This document shows, in pieces, positions 724-13,556 of a DNA stretch of 27,589 nucleotides. The notes under the pieces are model-generated. The model was given only the letters and a program-made list of their open reading frames with translations. It searched no databases and had not been told where the DNA came from. Every line of letters starts with the position of its first letter. Position 1 is the stretch's first letter. This stretch comes from a virus (Duplodnaviria; Heunggongvirae; Uroviricota; Caudoviricetes), in the IMG/VR virus record IMGVR_UViG_2563366982_000007. One strand, written 5' to 3'. The translations under genes and the position numbers were made by a program.

Positions 724-1137
724 TCAGATTCCCTCCCAAACTATATATCCTTTGTCTCTTGCCCAACAAACAACTGTGTGGGCTGTATATGTGGATGTGA
801 AGCCGCAATAAGAACATGACACTTCATACCGAGTATTGTAGATGTTAATGGGCTCGTTCTCCTTGTGTATGGGAGTGACATATTCCCAATCATTTGAATC
901 ATCATAATCATCAAGTTCAGGGTCTGTGCCGTGAACAACCGTATGTGGAATAAACAAATCTGGGCGCCCACACGAGAGACAAGAGGTTCTGGCTCCTCTA
1001 TCTTTGAGGAATTGAATAAATAATTTGGGCGAAATCTGTTGCAGAACCTGCAAATGCCCACGTTCATTATCATTAAGAGACCTGTCTGCATATGGAAAAT
1101 CATCAAATTTAAGAGGCTTCATATAAGGCATCTCCAA
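724..1137 (-). CDS. Hypothetical Cys-rich protein (possible zinc-ribbon), co-transcribed downstream of int
   Basis: 137-aa ORF with two Cys pairs, C-L-S-C-G and C-S-Y-C-G. Its start region overlaps the int stop (alternative starts at 1128 or 1122), and its stop abuts the next ORF. Confidence 0.5.
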   Translation of the reverse strand: MEMPYMKPLKFDDFPYADRSLNDNERGHLQVLQQISPKLFIQFLKDRGARTSCLSCGRPDLFIPHTVVHGTDPELDDYDDSNDWEYVTPIHKENEPINIYNTRYEVSCSYCGFTSTYTAHTVVCWARDKGYIVWEGI

Positions 1138-2101
1138 GGGGATTAAATCTCACCGCATCCTGCAGGTAATCCGGCGCAAGATGGGCATAAATCATCGTTG
1201 TCTGAATCTTTGCGTGCCCCAAAATTTTCTGGAGGGTCAGAATATTGCCGCCGTTCATCATGAAATGACTGGCGAAGGTGTGGCGCAGCGCATGAACAGC
1301 CTGGCCGTCAGGAACATCAGGTGCGACCGTTTTGATGACATCGCGAACCAATGAATAATCCAGCGTCGGAAACACCAGTTTCCCGCCCCGTTTTTTGATC
1401 TTTTCAAACAGGCTTTCAGAAATAGGAACGGTACGGTTTTTGCTGTTCTTCGTTTTTGAAAAAGTGATTCGACAATGAAGAACACGGCGCTGCTCCAGTG
1501 CCGCTACCTCGCCCCATCGCGCCCCGGTCGACAGAAGGATTTCGACAGCCAGCCGTTCATCGGGATTTTCAGCCAGTGCATCCAGCAACTGAACACATTC
1601 AGACTTACTCAGGTATCCCATTTCGCGCTCGTTAACCTTCATTCCTTTAAGGCCTTGAACGGGGTTATCGTTAAGAAAATGGCCGGATGAGATGAGTGCG
1701 GTAAACATCGCGCTTAACGCCCCAATCTCTCGATTTATGGTGCTGGGCTGTATCCCCTGCTCTATCCTGGACACACGTAGCTCGGTGAGCATCGTTGTAT
1801 TAAGTTTATGCACGCACGGGTCATCCATTGCTTCACTCAAGCGCAGCAATTTAAGGCGCGTGTTATGCCCTGACTTCATTAGCTGGCCGTGGTATTTCCA
1901 CCACAAGTCAATAAGCACTGACAGAGGACGGCGATCAATAGAGTTTCCTTTCCACTCATTGTTATGCTGTTGCGCCAGCACCCACCGCTCATATAAAACT
2001 GCATCCGATTTCGTTTTAAATTTTTTGCGAATGCGTTTGCCTTTACGCCCCTCAGGGCGCATGTCAAGAAGATACCCTCCCGGAATTGATTTTATGCTCA
2101 T
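1109..2101 (-). CDS. int: Tyrosine recombinase / phage integrase (P2 Int-like)
   Basis: Translation has the tyrosine-recombinase C-terminal motifs (ARWGE, HALRHTFASHFMMNGG, LQKILGH, MIYAH) and an N-terminus, MSIKSIPGGYLLDMRPEGRKGKRIRKKF, that closely resembles P2 Int as I recall it. Start is trimmed from the track ORF (2251) to the internal Met at 2101 to match P2 Int length and avoid overlapping C. Confidence 0.9.
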   Translation of the reverse strand: MSIKSIPGGYLLDMRPEGRKGKRIRKKFKTKSDAVLYERWVLAQQHNNEWKGNSIDRRPLSVLIDLWWKYHGQLMKSGHNTRLKLLRLSEAMDDPCVHKLNTTMLTELRVSRIEQGIQPSTINREIGALSAMFTALISSGHFLNDNPVQGLKGMKVNEREMGYLSKSECVQLLDALAENPDERLAVEILLSTGARWGEVAALEQRRVLHCRITFSKTKNSKNRTVPISESLFEKIKKRGGKLVFPTLDYSLVRDVIKTVAPDVPDGQAVHALRHTFASHFMMNGGNILTLQKILGHAKIQTTMIYAHLAPDYLQDAVRFNPLGDALYEAS

Positions 2102-2150
2102 TCGTGAAACCCCAGCGTTACAAGACCACCATGCCCCCAGCGTTCCATGA

Positions 2151-2459
2151 TTAGCCGGGCTGTGTACCAGTCTTGCGGGATTTTTGAGAAGACGATGTGT
2201 TTTCTGGCCCATCAGGGGAGAGAGAGGGACTGATCTGCCCAGCAGCCTCATTTGTTTTTCCCGTCATAAGCCAATTCATGTACTTAAAAAAGCGAGGGTG
2301 ATTAACAATCTTGATAAGCACTTCGCCCCCTATGTTTTCAATCCGCCCCGTTTCATAACGACGCAAAGTGCCGATAGGCACATCAATCAGGCCGCAAAAT
2401 TCTTCGCGCGTTAAATCCTCTGATTCACGAATCACTCTAATTTTTTCACCGATAAGCAT
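2151..2459 (-). CDS. C: Immunity repressor, P2 C-like
   Basis: About 102 aa from the internal Met. The core motif EKIRVIRESEDLTREEFCGLIDVPIGTLRRYETGR resembles the P2 C repressor HTH region from memory. Position between int and a divergent rightward early operon matches P2. Confidence 0.7.
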   Translation of the reverse strand: MLIGEKIRVIRESEDLTREEFCGLIDVPIGTLRRYETGRIENIGGEVLIKIVNHPRFFKYMNWLMTGKTNEAAGQISPSLSPDGPENTSSSQKSRKTGTQPG

Positions 2460-2555
2460 TGACAGTGTTCCTATAAGTACACTAAGCTTGCGCACAAGGT
2501 GTACTTATAAGTACACCAAGTCACAAACAACCACAGATAGCGCAGGTTATCACAC
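2460..2555. promoter_or_regulatory. Divergent C / early-operon control region with direct-repeat operator half-sites
   Basis: Two copies of TATAAGTACAC at about 2472-2482 and 2506-2516; the second is embedded in a 20-bp perfect palindrome GGTGTACTTATAAGTACACC (about 2498-2517). TTGACA at about 2459-2464. The 96-bp region lies between divergently transcribed C and the Cox-position gene. Confidence 0.5.
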
Positions 2556-2834
2556 ATGGCAAAAGTCCTGAACACACACGAACAGGCAGACTTTGAGCGT
2601 TTAGCAGCGTTCTATCCCTACCGCGATGAGCATGGGTTACCAGTACTTGAAGAAAGCCTGAAAGATTACGCAAAGCGTACCAACCAAGCTGTTAACACAG
2701 TGAAAAGACAGGCTGACAGAGGTTCAATTCCCATCAACCAAGATGAAAAGAACTCAAGACGCACAGTAAATCTCTTCGCTCTTTTCCTGAAAACAATCAG
2801 GAGCGCAGAAAAATACGTGCAGATGACAAAATAA
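2556..2834 (+). CDS. First gene of early operon, Cox/Apl-position small regulator (assignment by position only)
   Basis: 92-aa basic protein immediately right of the operator region, transcribed divergently from C. I do not see clear sequence similarity to P2 Cox, so the call is positional. Confidence 0.45.
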   Translation: MAKVLNTHEQADFERLAAFYPYRDEHGLPVLEESLKDYAKRTNQAVNTVKRQADRGSIPINQDEKNSRRTVNLFALFLKTIRSAEKYVQMTK

Positions 2835-2848
2835 CGAGGTGTCATTTT

Positions 2849-3187
2849 ATGCTGAAGCAACGCCGTAATTTTCGTACCGGAACAGAACGCCACGCTAACC
2901 GTTTCACTACCAGTGCATCACGCAGCAACATCCGCTACAGCCTGAGTGATACACACGCAACGCCGGATAGCTACCCAGTAAAACAAATCGGCGAGCACAC
3001 CTGGCTGATTGAGAAAGCTGGAATCGTGATCCACAAATGCCCACGCAATCCGTTTACCGGAAACCGCATTTTTGCATTGAGCTGTGGCGACAATCAGTTC
3101 GGGCAGGATTTCACATTATACGAAGCACTTCGCACGGTTGATCGTCTGCTTCGCGGGCAAAGTTTTATTAAACAGACTGATTTATAA
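2849..3187 (+). CDS. Hypothetical early protein
   Basis: 112-aa ORF in the early operon, tightly spaced after the previous gene. Confidence 0.45.
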   Translation: MLKQRRNFRTGTERHANRFTTSASRSNIRYSLSDTHATPDSYPVKQIGEHTWLIEKAGIVIHKCPRNPFTGNRIFALSCGDNQFGQDFTLYEALRTVDRLLRGQSFIKQTDL

Positions 3188-4894: not shown

Positions 4895-7660
4895 ATGACG
4901 GCAGAGTACATCAGGGACTGGCAACAACCGCGCCACGCAGTGGGGCGTGAAGGAACGGGGATCCCCGCTCCTGAATCCGCGCTTTCCTCCTGGCTGGATG
5001 CCTACCGGGTAGAGAACGAGCGCCGCCAGGAAATGGCTGATGCGGCGTTCTCCGCAACGCCGCTGGGCAACCTGATTAATAAAAGCCTGGACGCACAGGA
5101 AAAACAGGACAAAACCATCACACTGGCAGGAGATGCCAGAAAACAGGCACGCGGCGCGGTGGATGAAGCCATGGCCTCGCTGCGCCTGCTGCCGTCCTAT
5201 CTGCGCGATCCGCTTATTCGCCACCTCTCCTTCCTGCGCAAAAAACAGGAAGCCGATCGTCAGAAAGGCAAAAAGAGCTGGCAGGCTGAACGCTACGCGC
5301 GCGGAAACCTGCGCAAAATATTCGAACGTCTGGAGCGCACCGATCACCGCTGGCTGACACAGGGTTATCGCTCCCTTGCCGGACGCGAACGCCTGGACGA
5401 TTTGCTTTACCTGCCGCAGCTCAACAAACACCAGATACAGACACTGGCCACCATGACGGCGGCGATGTTCAGCAGCACCTTCGAAAAACTCTGCGATGGC
5501 TTTGGCGCGACCGATGGCGAACTGACCATGGATGTAACGCTGAAGGCGTATCAGATGCTGGCCCGCATGGCGTTACACCTGCACGCCATGCCTCCACATT
5601 ATGACGCACTGACAACAGACAAAGACCGGAGGAACGAACCGGACACGGAGCTGCTGCCGGGCGCAATCCTTCGCCTGACCTGTGCAGAATGGTGGAAACG
5701 CAAACTGTGGCTGTTACGTTGCGAGTGGAGAGAAGAACAACTCCGCGCCGCCTGTCTGGTTTCCAGAAAAACATCGCCCTATCTGAGCCAGGACGCGTTA
5801 AGCGAGTTTCGCGCACAGCGCGAGAAAACACGCGATTTCCTGAAAAGTTTCATGCTGGAAAATGAAGACGGGTTCACGATTGATCTCGAGACAGTGTATT
5901 ACGCGGGAGTAAGTAACCCGGTTCACCGTAAGGCAGAAATGATGGCCACCATGAAGGGGCTGGAACTTCTGGCCGAAGCCCGTGGTGACAAAGCGGTGTT
6001 TCTGACTGTCACCTGCCCGTCAAAATACCACGCAACAACGGAGAACGGTCATCCGAACCCCAAATGGAACGGGGCCACCATGCGCGACTCCAGCGATTAC
6101 CTGGTTAACACGTTTTTTGCGGCGGTCCGCAAAAAACTGAACCGCGACGGCCTGCGCTGGTATGGCATCCGCACGGTGGAGCCTCACCATGACGGCACCG
6201 TGCACTGGCATATGATGGTCTTTGCTCATCCGGAAGAAATCGACAGCATCGTGGCCATCACCCGCGATATTGCCATTCAGGAAGATCGTCACGAACTGGG
6301 CGATGATATTACTCCGCGCTTTAAGGCGGAGTATGTCGACGGCTCAAAAGGCACACCAACCAGCTATATCGCGACCTACATCGGAAAAAACCTGGACAGC
6401 CGCGCCGTAGATGGCATCGACCCGAAAACGGGCAAGCCACGCGTTGACCACGAAACCGAAAAATCAATGGCCGAGAGCGTGGAGCGCGCCATTGGCTGGG
6501 CGCGTCTTCATCGGGTCCGCCAGTTCCAGTTCTTTGGCATCCCCTCCCGTCAGGTATGGCGTGAACTCCGCCGCCTTGCCAGCCAGATGGCACGCAACCC
6601 GGAAGGCCCGCAACGGCTGAAGGATGATGCAATGGATGCGGTACTCGCTGCCGCTGATGCCGGGTGTTTTGCCTCCTACATTGAAAAACAGGGCGGCGTA
6701 CTTGTTCCACGTAAAGACTACCTGATTCGCACCGCCTACGACCTCGCAGATGAGCTGAACGATTACGGCGAGCAGAGTGTACAGATTTACGGGATCTGGT
6801 CGCCGCTCATCGGGGAGTCTTCCCGCGTGTGCACGCACCCGGATAACTGGAAGCTGGTAAGACGTAAACCGGAAGCGGAAGACAGCGCCCGCGAAAATGG
6901 TTTTGACCTTCAGGGCGGCCCTGCCGCCCCTTGGACTCGTGGCAATAACTGTCCCCGTGTACAGGAAACGGACAACAACGGGACAGAACAGCCGGAAGAA
7001 CGGCCAGCACCGTGGCCGCAGCTTCCTGACGGCGTTGATGTGGATGAATGGATGCGCTCACTGAAACGGCAAGAACGCCGGGCGCTGATGCGTTCGCTGC
7101 GTGACAAACAGGCAAAAAACAGCAGTGATGAAATGCAGAGCTGGACACAGAGCCGCAAACAGCAGCGGCCTTTGCCTGATAACCACGAATTACTCGCTAA
7201 AGAATGGCGGGAATCTGCTGAATCTCTCGGCCTGCATATCGGTGAACAGCAGATGCAGCACCTGTTACGGGGCGGCAGCCTGTACGTTGACGGCAGCATC
7301 ATTGCACCGCAGGGATTTGAAATTGTACGCAAACCGGATACCCGCCCGGACAGCCGAATCACGCAGCTCTGGCAGCGCCTGAGCCGTAATCACGGCGTAA
7401 GCAGCACGGAGATCCGCCATAACCCGGTCGCCAGCTATCTGGAACAGCTGGGGGCATCAGACCCCGAAGCCGCCGCACGCATGGTATCCACACTTCAGCA
7501 GGACCAGAACACCATGAAAACCCCCGTTACCGTGCTTTCTGACATGCTGCGCGTCATCCGTGACGCAGAGCACGCACAGAGAATCAATGAAACCACTGAA
7601 CGCGCACGTCACAAGGCGGGTCTGTTGCAGGACAAAGGCAATAGCGAGAAGAAAAAATAA
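4895..7660 (+). CDS. A: Rolling-circle replication initiator (P2 gpA-like HUH endonuclease) with long C-terminal extension
   Basis: HUH-type motif TVHWHMMVFAH and paired active-site tyrosines in SYIATYIGKN. Position after the early operon matches P2 gene A. At 921 aa it is longer than P2 A as I recall it (about 760 aa). Confidence 0.85.
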   Translation: MTAEYIRDWQQPRHAVGREGTGIPAPESALSSWLDAYRVENERRQEMADAAFSATPLGNLINKSLDAQEKQDKTITLAGDARKQARGAVDEAMASLRLLPSYLRDPLIRHLSFLRKKQEADRQKGKKSWQAERYARGNLRKIFERLERTDHRWLTQGYRSLAGRERLDDLLYLPQLNKHQIQTLATMTAAMFSSTFEKLCDGFGATDGELTMDVTLKAYQMLARMALHLHAMPPHYDALTTDKDRRNEPDTELLPGAILRLTCAEWWKRKLWLLRCEWREEQLRAACLVSRKTSPYLSQDALSEFRAQREKTRDFLKSFMLENEDGFTIDLETVYYAGVSNPVHRKAEMMATMKGLELLAEARGDKAVFLTVTCPSKYHATTENGHPNPKWNGATMRDSSDYLVNTFFAAVRKKLNRDGLRWYGIRTVEPHHDGTVHWHMMVFAHPEEIDSIVAITRDIAIQEDRHELGDDITPRFKAEYVDGSKGTPTSYIATYIGKNLDSRAVDGIDPKTGKPRVDHETEKSMAESVERAIGWARLHRVRQFQFFGIPSRQVWRELRRLASQMARNPEGPQRLKDDAMDAVLAAADAGCFASYIEKQGGVLVPRKDYLIRTAYDLADELNDYGEQSVQIYGIWSPLIGESSRVCTHPDNWKLVRRKPEAEDSARENGFDLQGGPAAPWTRGNNCPRVQETDNNGTEQPEERPAPWPQLPDGVDVDEWMRSLKRQERRALMRSLRDKQAKNSSDEMQSWTQSRKQQRPLPDNHELLAKEWRESAESLGLHIGEQQMQHLLRGGSLYVDGSIIAPQGFEIVRKPDTRPDSRITQLWQRLSRNHGVSSTEIRHNPVASYLEQLGASDPEAAARMVSTLQQDQNTMKTPVTVLSDMLRVIRDAEHAQRINETTERARHKAGLLQDKGNSEKKK

Positions 7661-7840
7661 CCAAGAAAGAAATCATCAATTGTATGAAGGTAGAGTTTAG
7701 ACATGGTAAGGACGTTCCATGGGGCACACTGTAATTTCATATAGTATTCCTCTTCCCTGTTTGATAAAAAAGTGCAATACTATAAATAGTCCAGTTAAAT
7801 GCTTTTTCAATTCACTTAAAATCAAGAGGTTACAGTTAAG
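7661..7840 (+). promoter_or_regulatory. AT-rich intergenic region upstream of the ATPase-peptidase operon; putative promoter
   Basis: 180 bp, markedly AT-rich. TTGATA at about 7761 and TATAAAT at about 7781 are sigma70-like, but the spacing is not ideal by my count. RBS AAGAGG lies about 10 nt before the 7841 ATG. Confidence 0.3.
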
Positions 7841-8962
7841 ATGGGCGACTTAGGTGGTATTCAGTCAGATTTAGCCCAACTAGTTAGACTGGTAATAACT
7901 GAACAGTATGATGACGTTCGGTTATATGTCGCTCGCTTGGTGCGTAAATATCGGGAAACTATGCCTGCTCTATCCGAGCAGCTTGATCTTTATCTACGAA
8001 ATAAACCGCAAAAGCCTGCACAAAGCCTGCGTAAGGTTACCGCACCAAAACAAGCGCTGCCTCAAACCATGCCTGTGGACGAGGAGTCAAGGCTTACCTT
8101 GCTTAAAGCACCAAATGAAAAGATTGTGAGCAAACCTCTACTGTCCAGTCAGATAGAAGACTCACTGGATCAAATTATTCTTGAGCGGAAGCACATCGAT
8201 CGCCTCAAGACTCTCGGCTTACAACCAACACGCTCTGCCATTTTTGTTGGCCCTCCGGGTGTAGGTAAAACACTTACGGCAAGCTGGTTAGCTCAGAAAT
8301 TAGGGGTTCCTTTTTACGTTCTTGATTTAACGGCAGTAATGAGCAGCTATCTGGGCAAAAGCGGAAATAACCTTCGGGCAGCTCTAGATTTTGCGAAGAA
8401 AGGGCCGTGCGTTCTTCTGTTAGATGAAATTGATTCAATCGCCAAAAAGAGAAGTGATGATTCTGATGTTGGAGAATTAAAAAGACTTGTTACCGTGATA
8501 CTCCAGGAGGTTGACGAATGGCCGTCTTCTAGTTTGCTACTTGCTGCAACTAACTTCGCTGAGTTGATTGATCCAGCACTATGGAGACGTTTTGATTTAG
8601 TGCTCAATTTTGAGAAGCCAGATAGCGAAAGTATTAAAGAAGCAATTAAACGCTTTTCGGGTCCCGACTACGCGATTTTTGCACGTTGGATAGATCTACT
8701 GGCTATTATGTTCAAAAATGAATCTTTTAGTAATATTGAGCGTTCTATCAACAAATTCCGACGTTCGGTCGCTTTAGGTATTTCCTCAGATGAAGAGTTG
8801 ATTGGGTCGTTCATTAAAGATGGTTTATCAGAATTAGACAGGAATGAACGTAAAGAAATTGCAGTTACTCTAAAAAGAAATTCTAAATTATCCCAGCATG
8901 CCATATCAGACTTAACCGGAGTCAGTAGGGATACAATTAGAAAATACAGTCAAAAAATGTAA
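7841..8962 (+). CDS. Classic AAA+ ATPase with C-terminal helix-turn-helix; candidate defense ATPase
   Basis: Walker A GPPGVGKT (about aa 137-144), Walker B LLLDEID (about aa 192-198), sensor-1-like AATN, arginine-finger-like WRRFD. C-terminal LSQHAISDLTGVSRDTIRKYS resembles an HTH. AT-rich codon usage unlike the flanking phage genes. Confidence 0.85.
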   Translation: MGDLGGIQSDLAQLVRLVITEQYDDVRLYVARLVRKYRETMPALSEQLDLYLRNKPQKPAQSLRKVTAPKQALPQTMPVDEESRLTLLKAPNEKIVSKPLLSSQIEDSLDQIILERKHIDRLKTLGLQPTRSAIFVGPPGVGKTLTASWLAQKLGVPFYVLDLTAVMSSYLGKSGNNLRAALDFAKKGPCVLLLDEIDSIAKKRSDDSDVGELKRLVTVILQEVDEWPSSSLLLAATNFAELIDPALWRRFDLVLNFEKPDSESIKEAIKRFSGPDYAIFARWIDLLAIMFKNESFSNIERSINKFRRSVALGISSDEELIGSFIKDGLSELDRNERKEIAVTLKRNSKLSQHAISDLTGVSRDTIRKYSQKM

Positions 8963-8985
8963 TACAGCATAGATAAGGAGTATGT

Positions 8986-11211
8986 ATGGCGAAAACTAAT
9001 TTTCTGATTGGACGCGGCGAATTATTAACCAGCGATATTCCTGGTCCTAAAAGAGTGCCCGGAAAAGCTGAGGTTTATTCTCTTTACGAATCGAAACAAC
9101 GTTTATTGCCGCAAATTGCATCTACTATAGAAAATTTTGATGATTTACCCAGTCAGGCATGTCCTTATGATTATGCTGTGGCTAAGTTGACGTTGAATCC
9201 AAGCTATATTGCACGCTCTTTTTTTCCTGCAAAAATGCTTAAGTCTACCGGGTTAACGTCTATTGGCAGCAGGACGGTAAAAATTACGCCTCAAAGCTGG
9301 AAGCGAAAAGTTACTGTGTCAGAAGTAACTACGACACAAATGTTTGTTGCTGGTAAAAGAGAATCCTTCAAAGAGTTACCTCATTGGGTGTCAGAACTCA
9401 AAGAGTTTTCTGACGAAGCGATTGATTTTGCACGCATAGAACGGTTCGATGCCTATTTACCCGAAGAGCGTATTATTACCATTGGTGAGCAGGATTCTTC
9501 GTATTTTGAGGTTGGTGTTCATTTACTGCCAGATAATGAACAAGACTTGGTTCAGCAACAATTTGTTCAGTTTGCATCAAATTTGAACATCAAAGTACAT
9601 ACTTCATTAGCTTTTACCGCTGGTACATTATGGTTCGTGCCAATCCAGGCCGATAGAATTACTATTAGTAAGCTTGCGAAATTTACATTTGTACGAGTAA
9701 TAAGACCGGTTCCAAGATTGCGTGGGATTAGACCAATACAAAGGAACTACGGTCCTTTAGCTCAGTGTAAATTACCTGCTGAGGGCCCCGTATCTTCAGA
9801 AATAAAAGTTGCGATTCTTGATGGTGGTTTACCATCAGAGCACGCTATATCGCCATGGTTAAAATCCTATAGAGTTTTGGACGATCATGCAGAGGATGAT
9901 CCAGACGGTTTAGAGCATGGTTTAGCTGTGTCTTCAGCCTTTTTATTTGGACCAATAAGTAATAAATCGGAAGCGAAAAGACCATACTCTTATATTGATA
10001 ACTTAAGAGTTTTGGACAACAAGACCTGCCAAGAAGATCCGCTGGAACTATATCGAACTTTGGGCTTTATTGAAGAGGTATTGTTGTCTCGCCAGTATCA
10101 GTTTATCAATCTAAGTTTAGGTCCAGACCTACCAATTGAAGATACGGAAGTTCATGCATGGACTTCCGTTATTGATGATTTGTTAAGTGATGGTGAAACA
10201 TTAATGACTGTTGCTGTTGGCAACAATGGAGAAATGGATCGCAAGTCTGGTAATGCAAGAATTCAAGTACCAGCCGATTGCGTTAATGCTCTTGCTGTTG
10301 GTGCTTGTGATACAGTTAATGATACGGAATGGAAACGAGCACCATATAGCGCCATTGGGCCAGGCAGAAGTCCTGGCGTGATGAAACCGGATTTAGTTGC
10401 GTTTGGTGGTGACACAGACGAGTACTTTCATGTTTTAGGTAAAGGTAAGAAGCCTGTAATCATACCCCAGCTAGGAACAAGCTTTGCCTCTCCTTACGCC
10501 TTACGAGCAGCTGTTGGTGTTCGGGCAATTTTAGGGAACGATTTGAGCCTACTAGCAATCAAAGCTTTGTTAATTCATGCGTCAAAACAGCTTGATCATC
10601 CTTGTACAGAAGTTGGCTGGGGAAAACTGCCTGAAGACTTGAACGACATTATAGTCAGCCCTGATGGTGTTGCCCGTATCGTCTACCAAGGTGAATTGAA
10701 ACCAGGAAAATACTTACGCGCTTCTCTTCCAATACCTGAAGGTGGCTTGAAAGGTAGAATAAACTTAGCGGCAACTTTCTGTTATGCAACAACCACTGAT
10801 CCACAAGACCCAGCTTCCTATACAAAAGCTGGTTTGGAAGTGACATTCCGGCCAAATGATTCAAAAATCAAAGACGGAAAACAAAATGCTGAAACCAAGG
10901 GATTCTTTGAACTGGCCAAATATTCAACTGAAAGTGAGCGACGTTCTGACATGGGCAAATGGGAGACCGTCTTACATAATTCGAAGAACATGCTAGGTTC
11001 AACTCTAAAAAATCCTGTATTTGACATTCATTATAACGCTCGTGAGGCCGGTGCAAGCATAGCCAGCCATAAGGCAGAAAAAATCAAGTATGCTCTTATA
11101 ATTACCATTAAGGCATCAAAGCACCAAGACCTGTATAACGAAATTTTACGTACTTATAATCAGGTGCTCGTGCCAATTCAACCGCAAACATCAATTCCTA
11201 TTCGTTCGTAA
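8986..11211 (+). CDS. S8 family (subtilisin-like) serine peptidase, cytoplasmic, with N- and C-terminal accessory domains; candidate defense effector or sensor
   Basis: Catalytic triad in canonical S8 order and context: Asp in VAILDGG (about aa 279), His in EHGLAVS (about aa 311), oxyanion Asn in VGNNG (about aa 413), Ser in GTSFASPY (about aa 499). No N-terminal signal peptide. About 270 aa precede and about 230 aa follow the protease core. Starts 23 bp after the ATPase stop with RBS AAGGAG. Confidence 0.85.
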   Translation: MAKTNFLIGRGELLTSDIPGPKRVPGKAEVYSLYESKQRLLPQIASTIENFDDLPSQACPYDYAVAKLTLNPSYIARSFFPAKMLKSTGLTSIGSRTVKITPQSWKRKVTVSEVTTTQMFVAGKRESFKELPHWVSELKEFSDEAIDFARIERFDAYLPEERIITIGEQDSSYFEVGVHLLPDNEQDLVQQQFVQFASNLNIKVHTSLAFTAGTLWFVPIQADRITISKLAKFTFVRVIRPVPRLRGIRPIQRNYGPLAQCKLPAEGPVSSEIKVAILDGGLPSEHAISPWLKSYRVLDDHAEDDPDGLEHGLAVSSAFLFGPISNKSEAKRPYSYIDNLRVLDNKTCQEDPLELYRTLGFIEEVLLSRQYQFINLSLGPDLPIEDTEVHAWTSVIDDLLSDGETLMTVAVGNNGEMDRKSGNARIQVPADCVNALAVGACDTVNDTEWKRAPYSAIGPGRSPGVMKPDLVAFGGDTDEYFHVLGKGKKPVIIPQLGTSFASPYALRAAVGVRAILGNDLSLLAIKALLIHASKQLDHPCTEVGWGKLPEDLNDIIVSPDGVARIVYQGELKPGKYLRASLPIPEGGLKGRINLAATFCYATTTDPQDPASYTKAGLEVTFRPNDSKIKDGKQNAETKGFFELAKYSTESERRSDMGKWETVLHNSKNMLGSTLKNPVFDIHYNAREAGASIASHKAEKIKYALIITIKASKHQDLYNEILRTYNQVLVPIQPQTSIPIRS

Positions 11212-11224
11212 TCCTTCAAGACAT

Positions 11225-11256
11225 AATGCCCCTCAATTTGAGGGGCATTTCTTTGC
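11225..11256 (+). terminator. Rho-independent terminator after the peptidase gene
   Basis: Perfect 10-bp stem AATGCCCCTC / GAGGGGCATT with loop AATTT, followed by a T-rich run; begins 14 nt after the stop codon. Confidence 0.6.
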
Positions 11257-11608
11257 ACAAAAGTGCACAAATTTGCACAATTTTTTTGAACGACTTTTTG
11301 CCCTTCCGGCCCGCATGGCGGCTGGATCCGTCAAGGATCCGTGCGTGCACAAAAAACGCGTTTTTCCTGCGCGCAGGTGACGGGGGAACAGCCCGCGTTT
11401 CAGGGGGTAAACAGCATTCCCTGAACGATGTCGCAGAGACACAACAGAATGGCCATATTTCTCACGCTGAGCATGAAAAAGGCGTGAGGGCTTTTGATTT
11501 GATGGGGTGAAAGGTAAGGCCGTCAAAATCGCACTGAGGCAGCGAGAACATACAGTCAACGCGGTGGAATTGCGTAAGTGAAGTGGTCAACAAAAACTGG
11601 CCACCGAG

Positions 11609-12756
<1,148 letters not shown>

Positions 12757-13031
12757 TATGGCACCTGTGTTGTTCTGAGGTGAGCATATCACCTCTGTTC
12801 AGGTGGCCAAATTCAGTAAACCACTTCAAAGAGTCTGACCGTCGATGGTGGCGATAAACTGGAAGGCGTCGTGAAATTATCTGATTGATACAGGAGCTGG
12901 AGAGCCGGGGCATAAATTTTTTATGCCCCGGCGAAGCAGCAGACAAGCGAAGCGCGTCAGCGATACGGCACCTTGCCGACCATACTTCATAAGTGCAAAA
13001 TACGAGCAAAGAAATCAATGGAGGCTGTCTT

Positions 13032-13556
13032 ATGGTCATTAATTACAAGCAGTTAAGAGAAAAACGGGAGCAGGTAAAGGAGAGCTTTCGCCGCAATGAA
13101 GATCTGACCCCGCTTGTACGCCTTGCCCAGGGCATTGTTGATGCTTATGAAATCTCGCTGGAGCTGCCATCACAGACCTGGACAGATAGCGACGGTAATC
13201 GCCAGCATTACGTTTCATGCGGACTGGAAGCAGCCGAAGGATTTCGCAGAATGCCTTTATCCCAGATCCCTGCCGCTACCCCCAAAGCACGGGGCAGCAA
13301 TGATGAGCGAAAACTGACTTTTAGTATTGAAACGGTGGTTGACGACACACCTGGCGAAGTCGCGTTCGTGCACACGCCTGTTTCGATCGCAATGTATAAC
13401 GATGAAATACAGGTTCGCGTTAATAATAATATCGTGCCACTTAAAGAAGGTAATTCACCCTACACCACCGTTTGTGAAGCCATTCAATATTACGTTCTCT
13501 CTGAAATTGATAATCTCAAGCCTGACGGCACCCAGAAAATGGTTCAACTCTGGTAA
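13032..13556 (+). CDS. Hypothetical protein (about 174 aa), orphan gene between the IS and portal gene Q, convergent with Q
   Basis: ORF with RBS GGAGG before the ATG at 13032 (the track ORF starts at 12993). No recognisable motifs. Ends at a shared bidirectional terminator. Confidence 0.5.
   Translation: MVINYKQLREKREQVKESFRRNEDLTPLVRLAQGIVDAYEISLELPSQTWTDSDGNRQHYVSCGLEAAEGFRRMPLSQIPAATPKARGSNDERKLTFSIETVVDDTPGEVAFVHTPVSIAMYNDEIQVRVNNNIVPLKEGNSPYTTVCEAIQYYVLSEIDNLKPDGTQKMVQLW

Follow-up and report, generated by a model that had tools for sequence, protein, structure and literature searches.

IetAS was introduced as a toxin-antitoxin pair of the Agrobacterium plasmid pTiC58, with a protease as toxin and an ATPase as antitoxin, and has homologues on Salmonella genomic island 1 (SGI1) and in mycoplasmas. 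The pTiC58 pair IetA/IetS (Yamamoto et al. 2009) and SgiA/SgiT of SGI1 follow the same operon plan as the locus described here, in which the gene of an AAA+ antitoxin is followed by that of an S8 subtilase toxin. IetAS is also an abortive-infection anti-phage system with a phage-protein trigger, and the HMMs built for it cover both proteins over their full length including the C-terminal region (Gao et al. 2020; PADLOC, DefenseFinder, NCBIfam IteA/IteS). Toxicity and its neutralisation, or protection against phages, have been shown in homologues from pTiC58, SGI1, mycoplasma, B. cereus and E. coli ECOR52 and in ietHAS. The single identified trigger is YosG of phage SPbeta, some of the mutations that let phages escape lie in phage replication functions, and E. 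coli ietAS has been noted on prophages. According to a 2026 paper the mechanism is unknown, and attempts to clone an inactive ietA together with an active protease did not succeed. For SGI1, no post-segregational killing was seen with sgiAT under its own promoter, and the authors suggested a need for positive activation, not repression.

Here, we analysed an open reading frame (7841-8962) and its surroundings in a window of 27,589 nucleotides, the whole stretch of DNA available from an IMG/VR virus record (IMGVR_UViG_2563366982_000007). A preliminary description, made from the letters alone, had seen in its product an AAA+ ATPase with a C-terminal helix-turn-helix (HTH). We show that the gene belongs to a known IetAS pair, dissect the domains of the ATPase, and describe a pair of short DNA boxes at a fixed distance, which we propose as the target of the HTH.

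Results

An IetAS pair as cargo of a P2-like prophage

The window belongs to a P2-like E. coli prophage, in which ietA and ietS sit between gpA, a replication gene, and the gene of the portal protein:

ORF 4895-7660: gpA (Pfam Phage_GPA, E 3e-131)
7841..8962, + strand: ietA, ATG start, 373 aa; AAA+ ATPase, antitoxin/regulator half of IetAS
8986..11211, + strand: ietS, 741-aa S8 (subtilase) protease, toxin/effector half; starts 23 nt past the ietA stop

The ietA product matches the PADLOC profile PDLC02196 with an E-value of 1e-77, its residues 9-372 aligning with positions 5-370 of 374, and three other PADLOC IetA models match it as well. Likewise, IetS matches PDLC02197 over aa 36-726 (E 1.1e-51) and Pfam Peptidase_S8 over aa 271-546 (E 2.5e-19). 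The motifs that normally hold the Asp (ILDGG, 277), the His (HGL, 311), the oxyanion Asn (GNNG, 412) and the Ser (GTSFASP, 497) of such proteases are all present. With 223.3 bits against IteA_antiphage (equivalog cut-off 510) and 135.3 bits against IteS_antiphage (cut-off 900), both proteins fall below the NCBIfam equivalog thresholds, which marks them as homologous, but as members of another subfamily than the NCBIfam seed. Among 80 related loci from other genomes, ietS stands directly 3' of ietA in 77, and the other three end at contig edges. Judged by these profile matches, the reading frame and the gene that follows it are the already named IetAS system, not a new one. Indeed, the ATPase is of a known kind: the PADLOC profile already spans its HTH region, and the protein has a RefSeq entry (WP_000502620.1, 'AAA family ATPase'). 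The partnership of the ATPase with an adjacent protease and the phage-related function, both suggested in the preliminary description, agree with the PADLOC assignment of the two genes as IetA and IetS. That description had missed the known identity of the system.

Bases 7661-11300 are 100% identical to E. coli strain M1/5, where the pair is flanked by the replication endonuclease gpA on one side and by portal, terminase and capsid genes on the other. Of 5426 complete E. coli genomes, 43 contain at least 80% of this segment, with the constant annotation 'AAA family ATPase' and 'S8 family peptidase'. The G+C content is about 0.55 in the phage genes and drops to 0.40-0.43 across positions 8000-11000, as fits acquired cargo. 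The ietAS pair is cargo in the variable gpA-portal region; both the defence cassette and the prophage hotspot that holds it are known.

Domain architecture of IetA

Relatives were sought among 1.8 billion cluster representatives, and more than 120 full-length proteins aligned from about residue 1 to about residue 372. Conservation was read from 123 full-length cluster representatives with 32-56% identity, and the counts below are given over 124 sequences. Combined with AlphaFold2 (AF2) models, the alignment gives the following order: an N-terminal three-helix bundle, a disordered linker with a PVDxxSRLxLL motif, the AAA+ cassette, its lid and an appended tri-helical HTH.

7850..7999, + strand, aa 4-53: predicted N-terminal three-helix bundle, IetA-family-specific (AF2 helices 4-19, 23-36, 42-53)
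8009..8095, + strand, aa 57-85: predicted disordered linker (pLDDT <50)
8072..8107, + strand, aa 78-89: conserved short linear motif PVDEESRLTLLK, P-V-D-x-[DE]-S-R-L-x-L-L-[KR]
8138..8620, + strand: AAA+ large subdomain (Pfam AAA, motif positions)
8249-8272, + strand, aa 137-144: Walker A motif, GPPGVGKT
8342-8356, + strand, aa 168-172: pore loop 1 motif, SSYLG
8414-8434, + strand, aa 192-198: Walker B motif, LLLDEID
8585-8590, + strand, aa 249-250: arginine-finger motif, RR
8624..8827, + strand, aa 262-329: AAA+ lid, modelled as a complete four-helix bundle (AF2 helices 262-281, 284-290, 296-312, 317-329)
8840..8956, + strand, aa 334-372: C-terminal tri-helical HTH (conservation, profiles, AF2), recognition helix S362-R-D-T-I-R-K368

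The AAA+ core, placed at about aa 130-260 in the preliminary description, is recovered by Pfam AAA (PF00004) at aa 134-258 with an E-value of 2.6e-30. Its Walker A lysine is kept in all 124 sequences and the Walker B Asp and Glu in 123 each; pore-loop position 170 is Tyr or Phe in 92 and Leu in 21. With N238 as sensor-1, the ATPase and pore-loop residues of IetA are intact, and the motifs as a whole hardly vary among the 123 relatives. The nearest solved structures to the module are p97/Cdc48/VAT, with FtsH also close, and it belongs to the classical p97/FtsH/proteasome-like clade. These were also the best matches when the PDB was searched by sequence or by fold, which returned no solved IetA structure.

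The approximately 120 residues in front of the core had been described as a region with no obvious motif. It is correct that no Pfam family is detected, neither with aa 1-126 of IetA at E-values up to 10 nor with 58 orthologous N-termini. The region is, however, not one domain and resolves into four parts. Its bundle block is modelled with a pLDDT of 75-85 and is conserved among the 123 representatives; in the HTH-less IetA of the pTi plasmid it is aligned from profile position 2. The linker (aa 57-85) varies in length and sequence across the alignments. The linear motif is well kept (of 124 sequences, 103 have P78, 94 have D80 and 104 have L87), and variants of it recur in the HTH-less proteins from pTi and Stutzerimonas as well as in the IetA of pRi1724, which has a different HTH. 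The helix at 103-124 is modelled as a part of the AAA module.

A profile of the N-terminal region matched designed helical bundles in the PDB, and the third MIT helix of Vps4B with its linker at a non-significant E-value of 0.75-1.3. We dropped an MIT-like assignment, since Pfam was silent and the Vps4B matches were non-significant, and kept the analogy of layout. The bundle and the motif are thus the universal part of IetA, the one that defines the family. Because they occur in all forms, including those without an HTH, we infer that they are the better candidates for contacting IetS or the phage trigger.

A separate C-terminal helix-turn-helix

The preliminary description based its HTH on a C-terminal peptide (LSQHAISDLTGVSRDTIRKY, IetA aa 350-369). 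As a call it was a reasonable guess: on the single IetA sequence Pfam stays below threshold, HTH_11 scoring 19.1 bits against a cut-off of 25 and HTH_23 and HTH_24 similarly (best 19.1-19.4). The family gives a clearer picture. Outside the AAA core, no stretch is better conserved among the 123 representatives (32-56% identity) than the consensus SQRKISELTGVSRDTIRKY, reading S-Q-R-K-I-S-E-L-T-G-V-S-R-D-T-I-R-K-Y; of 124 sequences, 100 keep G360, 107 keep R363 and 115 keep T365. When 70 C-terminal segments were compared with Pfam, 31 matched HTH_23, the best match was HTH_psq (4.8e-10), and all well-populated families among the matches were HTH families. A profile of these segments found a Fis-like protein in the PDB (E 4e-4), followed by the DeoR DNA-binding domain, Aca1, CylR2 and IstA.

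The structural models agree. Past the lid, AF2 places helices at 334-347, 352-359 and 363-372, the second and third joined by a tight turn, and the last 48 residues of IetA are predicted to fold in isolation with a pLDDT of 88. Foldseek E-values are non-significant for such a short query; its top matches are HTH-type domains, and nearly all matches of the profile and fold searches together are HTH DNA-binding domains. The conserved residues occupy the classic DNA-reading positions, namely S/A-R-D-T-I-R-K on helix 3 and the glycine at the turn, and in most relatives a basic tail comes after the HTH. Thus, the proposed HTH is borne out by family conservation, by profile matches and by the modelled helices at 334-372. 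The modelling of the C-terminus that had been suggested as a check finds an HTH that follows a complete four-helix lid and is separate from it. Taken together, models and alignments indicate that the C-terminal HTH of IetA is real and not a piece of the lid.

Is this module a constant part of IetA? The IetA proteins of the pTi plasmid and of Stutzerimonas (328 aa each) terminate just past the lid. Such natural HTH-less proteins make the HTH an accessory module that is dispensable within the family. Our literature search found no IetA paper that discusses a helix-turn-helix, and the co-occurrences of both terms were in unrelated papers. Nor did we find an anti-phage assay of this very allele.

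A candidate operator with two phased boxes

The DNA around the ietA start contains three short elements of interest:

7773..7781, + strand: predicted extended -10 element, TGcAATACT (consensus, anchored alignment of 59 upstream regions)
7787..7793, + strand: box 1, TAGTCCA, 54 nt 5' of the ietA ATG, at the predicted transcription start
7872..7878, + strand: box 2, TAGCCCA, within codons 11-13 (L-A-Q) of ietA, 85 bp 3' of box 1

In the aligned upstream DNA, a -35-like TTCACA is followed after 17 nt by an extended -10-like TGnGAnAAT, which is what the -10 column reads in most related loci, and after a further 4-5 nt by a near-invariant TAGTCC(A/G). Box 1 reaches an information content of 1.3-2.0 bits per position over 59 unique loci; TAGTCC stands exactly at -54 in 28 loci and between -50 and -55 in 13 more. 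A promoter scan was uninformative, with 7 sites against 8.4 expected from shuffled sequence.

Box 2 lies inside the coding region. Codons 10-13 (D-L-A-Q) are nearly always GAT TTA GCC CAG, GC-rich hosts included: A12 is GCC in 63/63, L11 is the rare TTA in 57/64 and D10 is GAT in 65/69. Codons 10-12 have the lowest normalised codon entropy of 276 conserved-residue columns (mean 0.85); box 2 is held by strong synonymous constraint.

At loci with this HTH class the consensus of the boxes is TAGYCCA. Of 72 unique loci, 57 have box starts that lie 84-86 bp apart, 46 of them at exactly 85 bp, and this spacing is kept though the lengths of the leader (-45 to -63) and of the N-terminal part (+23 to +41) vary. 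About 85 bp is roughly eight helical turns, which would place both boxes on the same face of the DNA. The arrangement extends to distant relatives. On a plasmid of the actinobacterium Kitasatospora, whose IetA has 42% identity and the same VSRDTIR helix, TCGTCCAC and TAGTCCAC are separated by 86 bp. In a divergent proteobacterial clade with an altered HTH (helix 2 THMQISQMTG, helix 3 VARDTIRKH, PRKGRGLK tail), TTCGCCATAA repeats over the -10 and TTCGCCAAT stands at the equivalent codons, again at 84-86 bp; the box reads TTCGCCA at both positions. Two loci on viral contigs carry other box variants exactly 85 bp apart. HTH-less ietA loci show no such pair, and loci with other HTH classes (SHPTV, SRSQV, SPSTV; viral contigs) show no 85-bp repeat pair by an 8-of-9 match test.

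We rejected as operator an inverted repeat at 7740-7754/7770-7784, which is limited to the enterobacterial version and is unconserved elsewhere. At the RNA level, Rfam returned one chance-level miRNA match on the leader and 5' coding region. Many relatives have a leader hairpin right after TAGTCC (14 of 20 z-scores negative, best -4.9); the leader here has an MFE of 0, and we therefore discarded a 5'-proximal mRNA hairpin as a feature of this locus. The second codon is always GGC (44/44), and UGGGC (+2..+6) is complementary to GCCCA (+34..+38).

Discussion

Based on the boxes and on the HTH, IetA probably controls its own operon. Phased direct repeats, one at the predicted transcription start and one under synonymous constraint, and the joint change of both boxes between clades are what one would expect of an operator in two parts that has evolved together with the DNA-binding domain that reads it, and because the IetA HTH is the sole such domain encoded in the cassette, we propose autoregulation by IetA. 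The HTH domains of oligomeric IetA would bind both boxes and repress ietAS transcription in the manner of a type II antitoxin, and such feedback would hold the ratio of ATPase to protease in check. A phage protein that disturbs the control by IetA would then free IetS and abort the infection, as published for other IetAS systems. We consider autoregulation of ietAS through the two boxes somewhat more likely than not, and prefer it to sensing of phage nucleic acid.

Several observations count against autoregulation. Between its two main clades the recognition helix hardly differs (A in place of S at 362, with changes in helix 2), whereas the box changes strongly. The promoter and the transcription start are predicted from consensus, and the promoter scan gave no excess of sites over shuffled sequence. 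The absence of an 85-bp pair in the simple test at loci of other HTH classes, and the sgiAT result under its own promoter with the suggested positive activation, also weigh on this side, the latter against autorepression. The complementarity of UGGGC and GCCCA, together with GGC at codon 2, would also accord with a hairpin in the mRNA that covers the start codon. The link from HTH to box is correlative, drawn from few independent lineages with ~3-4 box types.

Could the HTH serve another partner? The preliminary description had pictured IetA as a sensor or regulator that couples the recognition of nucleic acid or phage proteins to proteolysis. Its emphasis on nucleic-acid sensing is probably misplaced, the operon's own control region being the likelier target. 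Stated as a mechanism, the HTH would bind phage DNA or replication intermediates, and this would switch the AAA+ ring and set the protease free. A real HTH, often with a basic tail, a function in abortive infection with some escape mutations in phage replication functions, and a mode of action that the 2026 paper lists as unknown would all accord with this. We consider it improbable nonetheless, because an invariant recognition helix is paired with an invariant box at fixed spacing in its own control region, which argues for a target in cis and not for varied phage DNA, and because the one trigger identified, YosG of SPbeta, is a protein. Moreover, the founding, HTH-less IetA still works as an antitoxin on pTiC58, so the HTH is not needed for control of the protease. 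The same dispensability, in members that are still paired with IetS, speaks against an HTH fold that makes protein contacts (IetS docking, ring assembly or trigger binding) with the boxes left to another factor; given also that its conserved residues sit at the classic DNA-reading positions and that its profile matches are DNA-binding HTH proteins, we regard such a role as very unlikely.

The boxes could also act in RNA, independently of the HTH, if a UGGGC-GCCCA hairpin at the start codon or a 5'-terminal element controlled translation or mRNA stability. The complementarity of the fixed GGC at codon 2 (44/44) to the fixed GCC at codon 12 (63/63), and the many related leaders that fold a hairpin straight after TAGTCC, would speak for it. 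The spacing is difficult to reconcile with such an element, since box 2 shifts relative to the start codon (+23 to +59) while the two boxes keep their 84-86 bp; furthermore, the boxes are direct repeats and not complements, their sequence co-varies at both sites across clades, and the leader of this locus has no predicted hairpin (MFE 0) and is negative in Rfam. We therefore doubt control at the RNA level. A further reading would retain binding of IetA to its own locus and extend it: IetA as a DNA-anchored AAA+ machine, whose ring sits on the two phased boxes and wraps or loops the DNA, so that promoter occupancy is coupled to the restraint of IetS. Whatever strips IetA from the DNA or stalls its ATPase, for instance a phage protein, the shut-off of host transcription or replication across the locus, would then derepress the operon and free the protease at once. 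This is a long shot.

How does the locus compare with known regulators? Type II antitoxins with an HTH, of the HigA, MqsA and HipB type, autorepress their own operon. IetA would resemble them as an antitoxin with a small HTH whose candidate repeats overlap its own promoter and gene start. It differs in being a 373-aa, ATP-driven AAA+ machine rather than a small labile protein, and its candidate operator consists of two direct repeats 85 bp apart instead of a palindrome. With NtrC-type enhancer-binding proteins IetA shares the order of an AAA+ module and a C-terminal tri-helical HTH, and the best match of its HTH is Fis-like; an NtrC-type assignment was rejected, as IetA lacks GAFTGA, matches PF00004 and not Sigma54_activat, and has p97/FtsH as nearest structures. 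The partner of the NtrC type is RNA polymerase, that of IetA a protease. Vps4, katanin and spastin have the same layout of a small three-helix bundle, a disordered linker and one AAA cassette with a DPALWRRFD-type arginine-finger region; they possess an MIT domain, which Pfam does not detect in IetA, and the likeness is one of layout alone. The founding protein, pTi IetA (328 aa), aligns in the N-terminal region, linker and AAA core (PDLC02196 positions 2-322) with ~35% identity to the present protein over aa 70-263, and differs in having neither the HTH nor the TAGYCCA pair.

In summary, what appears to be new about this known system is the domain dissection of IetA, the optional nature of its HTH and the pair of boxes 85 bp apart. 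The system itself is ordinary, and no fewer than 43 complete E. coli genomes contain the same DNA. IetAS occurs widely and has been validated by experiment, and its mechanism is unsolved according to the 2026 paper; a universal N-terminal module set apart from an optional HTH, a spaced box pair of which one member is embedded in coding sequence, and natural HTH-less variants offer experimental handles on it. If the DNA-anchored reading were true, an abortive-infection system would have a new means of sensing the state of the cell.

Genomic setting of the ietA-ietS pair

The left part of the window is marked by a tyrosine integrase gene, and from 13571 onward we found P2-type portal, terminase, capsid, lysis and tail genes. 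Between ietS, which encodes an S8 protease, and the portal gene lies a variable region, which holds an IS3-family insertion and a 187-aa ORF.

1109-2251, minus strand: tyrosine integrase, prophage type (Int_N and Phage_integrase)
About 11570-12835: IS3-family element, ISEc52-like, with minus-strand ORFs at 11609-12427 and 12454-12792
12993-13556, plus strand: 187-aa ORF, no Pfam match, 'hypothetical' in E. coli M1/5

The IS3-family element sits between ietS and the next gene and matches further E. coli copies at 99% identity; strain M1/5 does not carry the insertion at this site and is otherwise identical to the window there. The 187-aa ORF could be further hotspot cargo.

Leader and first codons of ietA

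The DNA upstream of the AAA+ ATPase gene ietA contains an inverted repeat, which flanks the predicted -35 region on both sides and was seen only in the enterobacterial versions, i.e. in the window and in the Salmonella locus L003.

7740-7754 / 7770-7784: inverted repeat, 15 nt, 87% complementary, TATAGTATTCCTCTT / AAGTGCAATACTATA

Directly after the TAGTCC box, many related leaders carry a short hairpin of variable sequence (40 nt after TAGTCC, L004-L064), for which 14 of 20 z-scores were negative, with a lowest value of -4.9. In the E. coli leader of the window (7787-7828), no hairpin was predicted (MFE 0).

Within the coding sequence, codon 2 (7844-7846) is GGC in all 44 of the 44 genes that have Gly at this codon (loci L002-L070). 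The resulting (A)UGGGC at +1 to +6 and the GCCCA(G) in codons 12-13 (7874-7878 in the window, the same columns in L002-L070) are complementary sequences. Judged from the sequence, this complementarity may come from an mRNA hairpin that covers the start codon, or it may mark a third box copy in inverted orientation; for the latter comparison, ietA reads TGGGCGA here and the complement of the box TGGGCTA.

Variety of the IetA C-terminus

Most beta- and gammaproteobacterial IetA relatives (L004-L081) have a basic tail of 10-18 residues after the C-terminal helix-turn-helix (HTH), e.g. KKRRREA, SKRKPDA or PRKGRGLK, whereas E. coli IetA (compared over 8945-8959) stops four residues (SQKM) past helix 3, the recognition helix. 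The ietA of an Agrobacterium pTi plasmid (L082) encodes no HTH, and a separate DUF6088 gene lies upstream of it (2469-3062). Among homologues from viral contigs (L087, L089, L090, L095-L099, L102 and L104) and plasmid loci (L084 and L085), we found at least six different C-terminal HTH recognition helices, including SHPTV/IANK, SRSQVRK, PRTQVSK, SPSTVNH and SRQAIYAY. The DNA-binding module appears to diversify or be exchanged within the IetA family.
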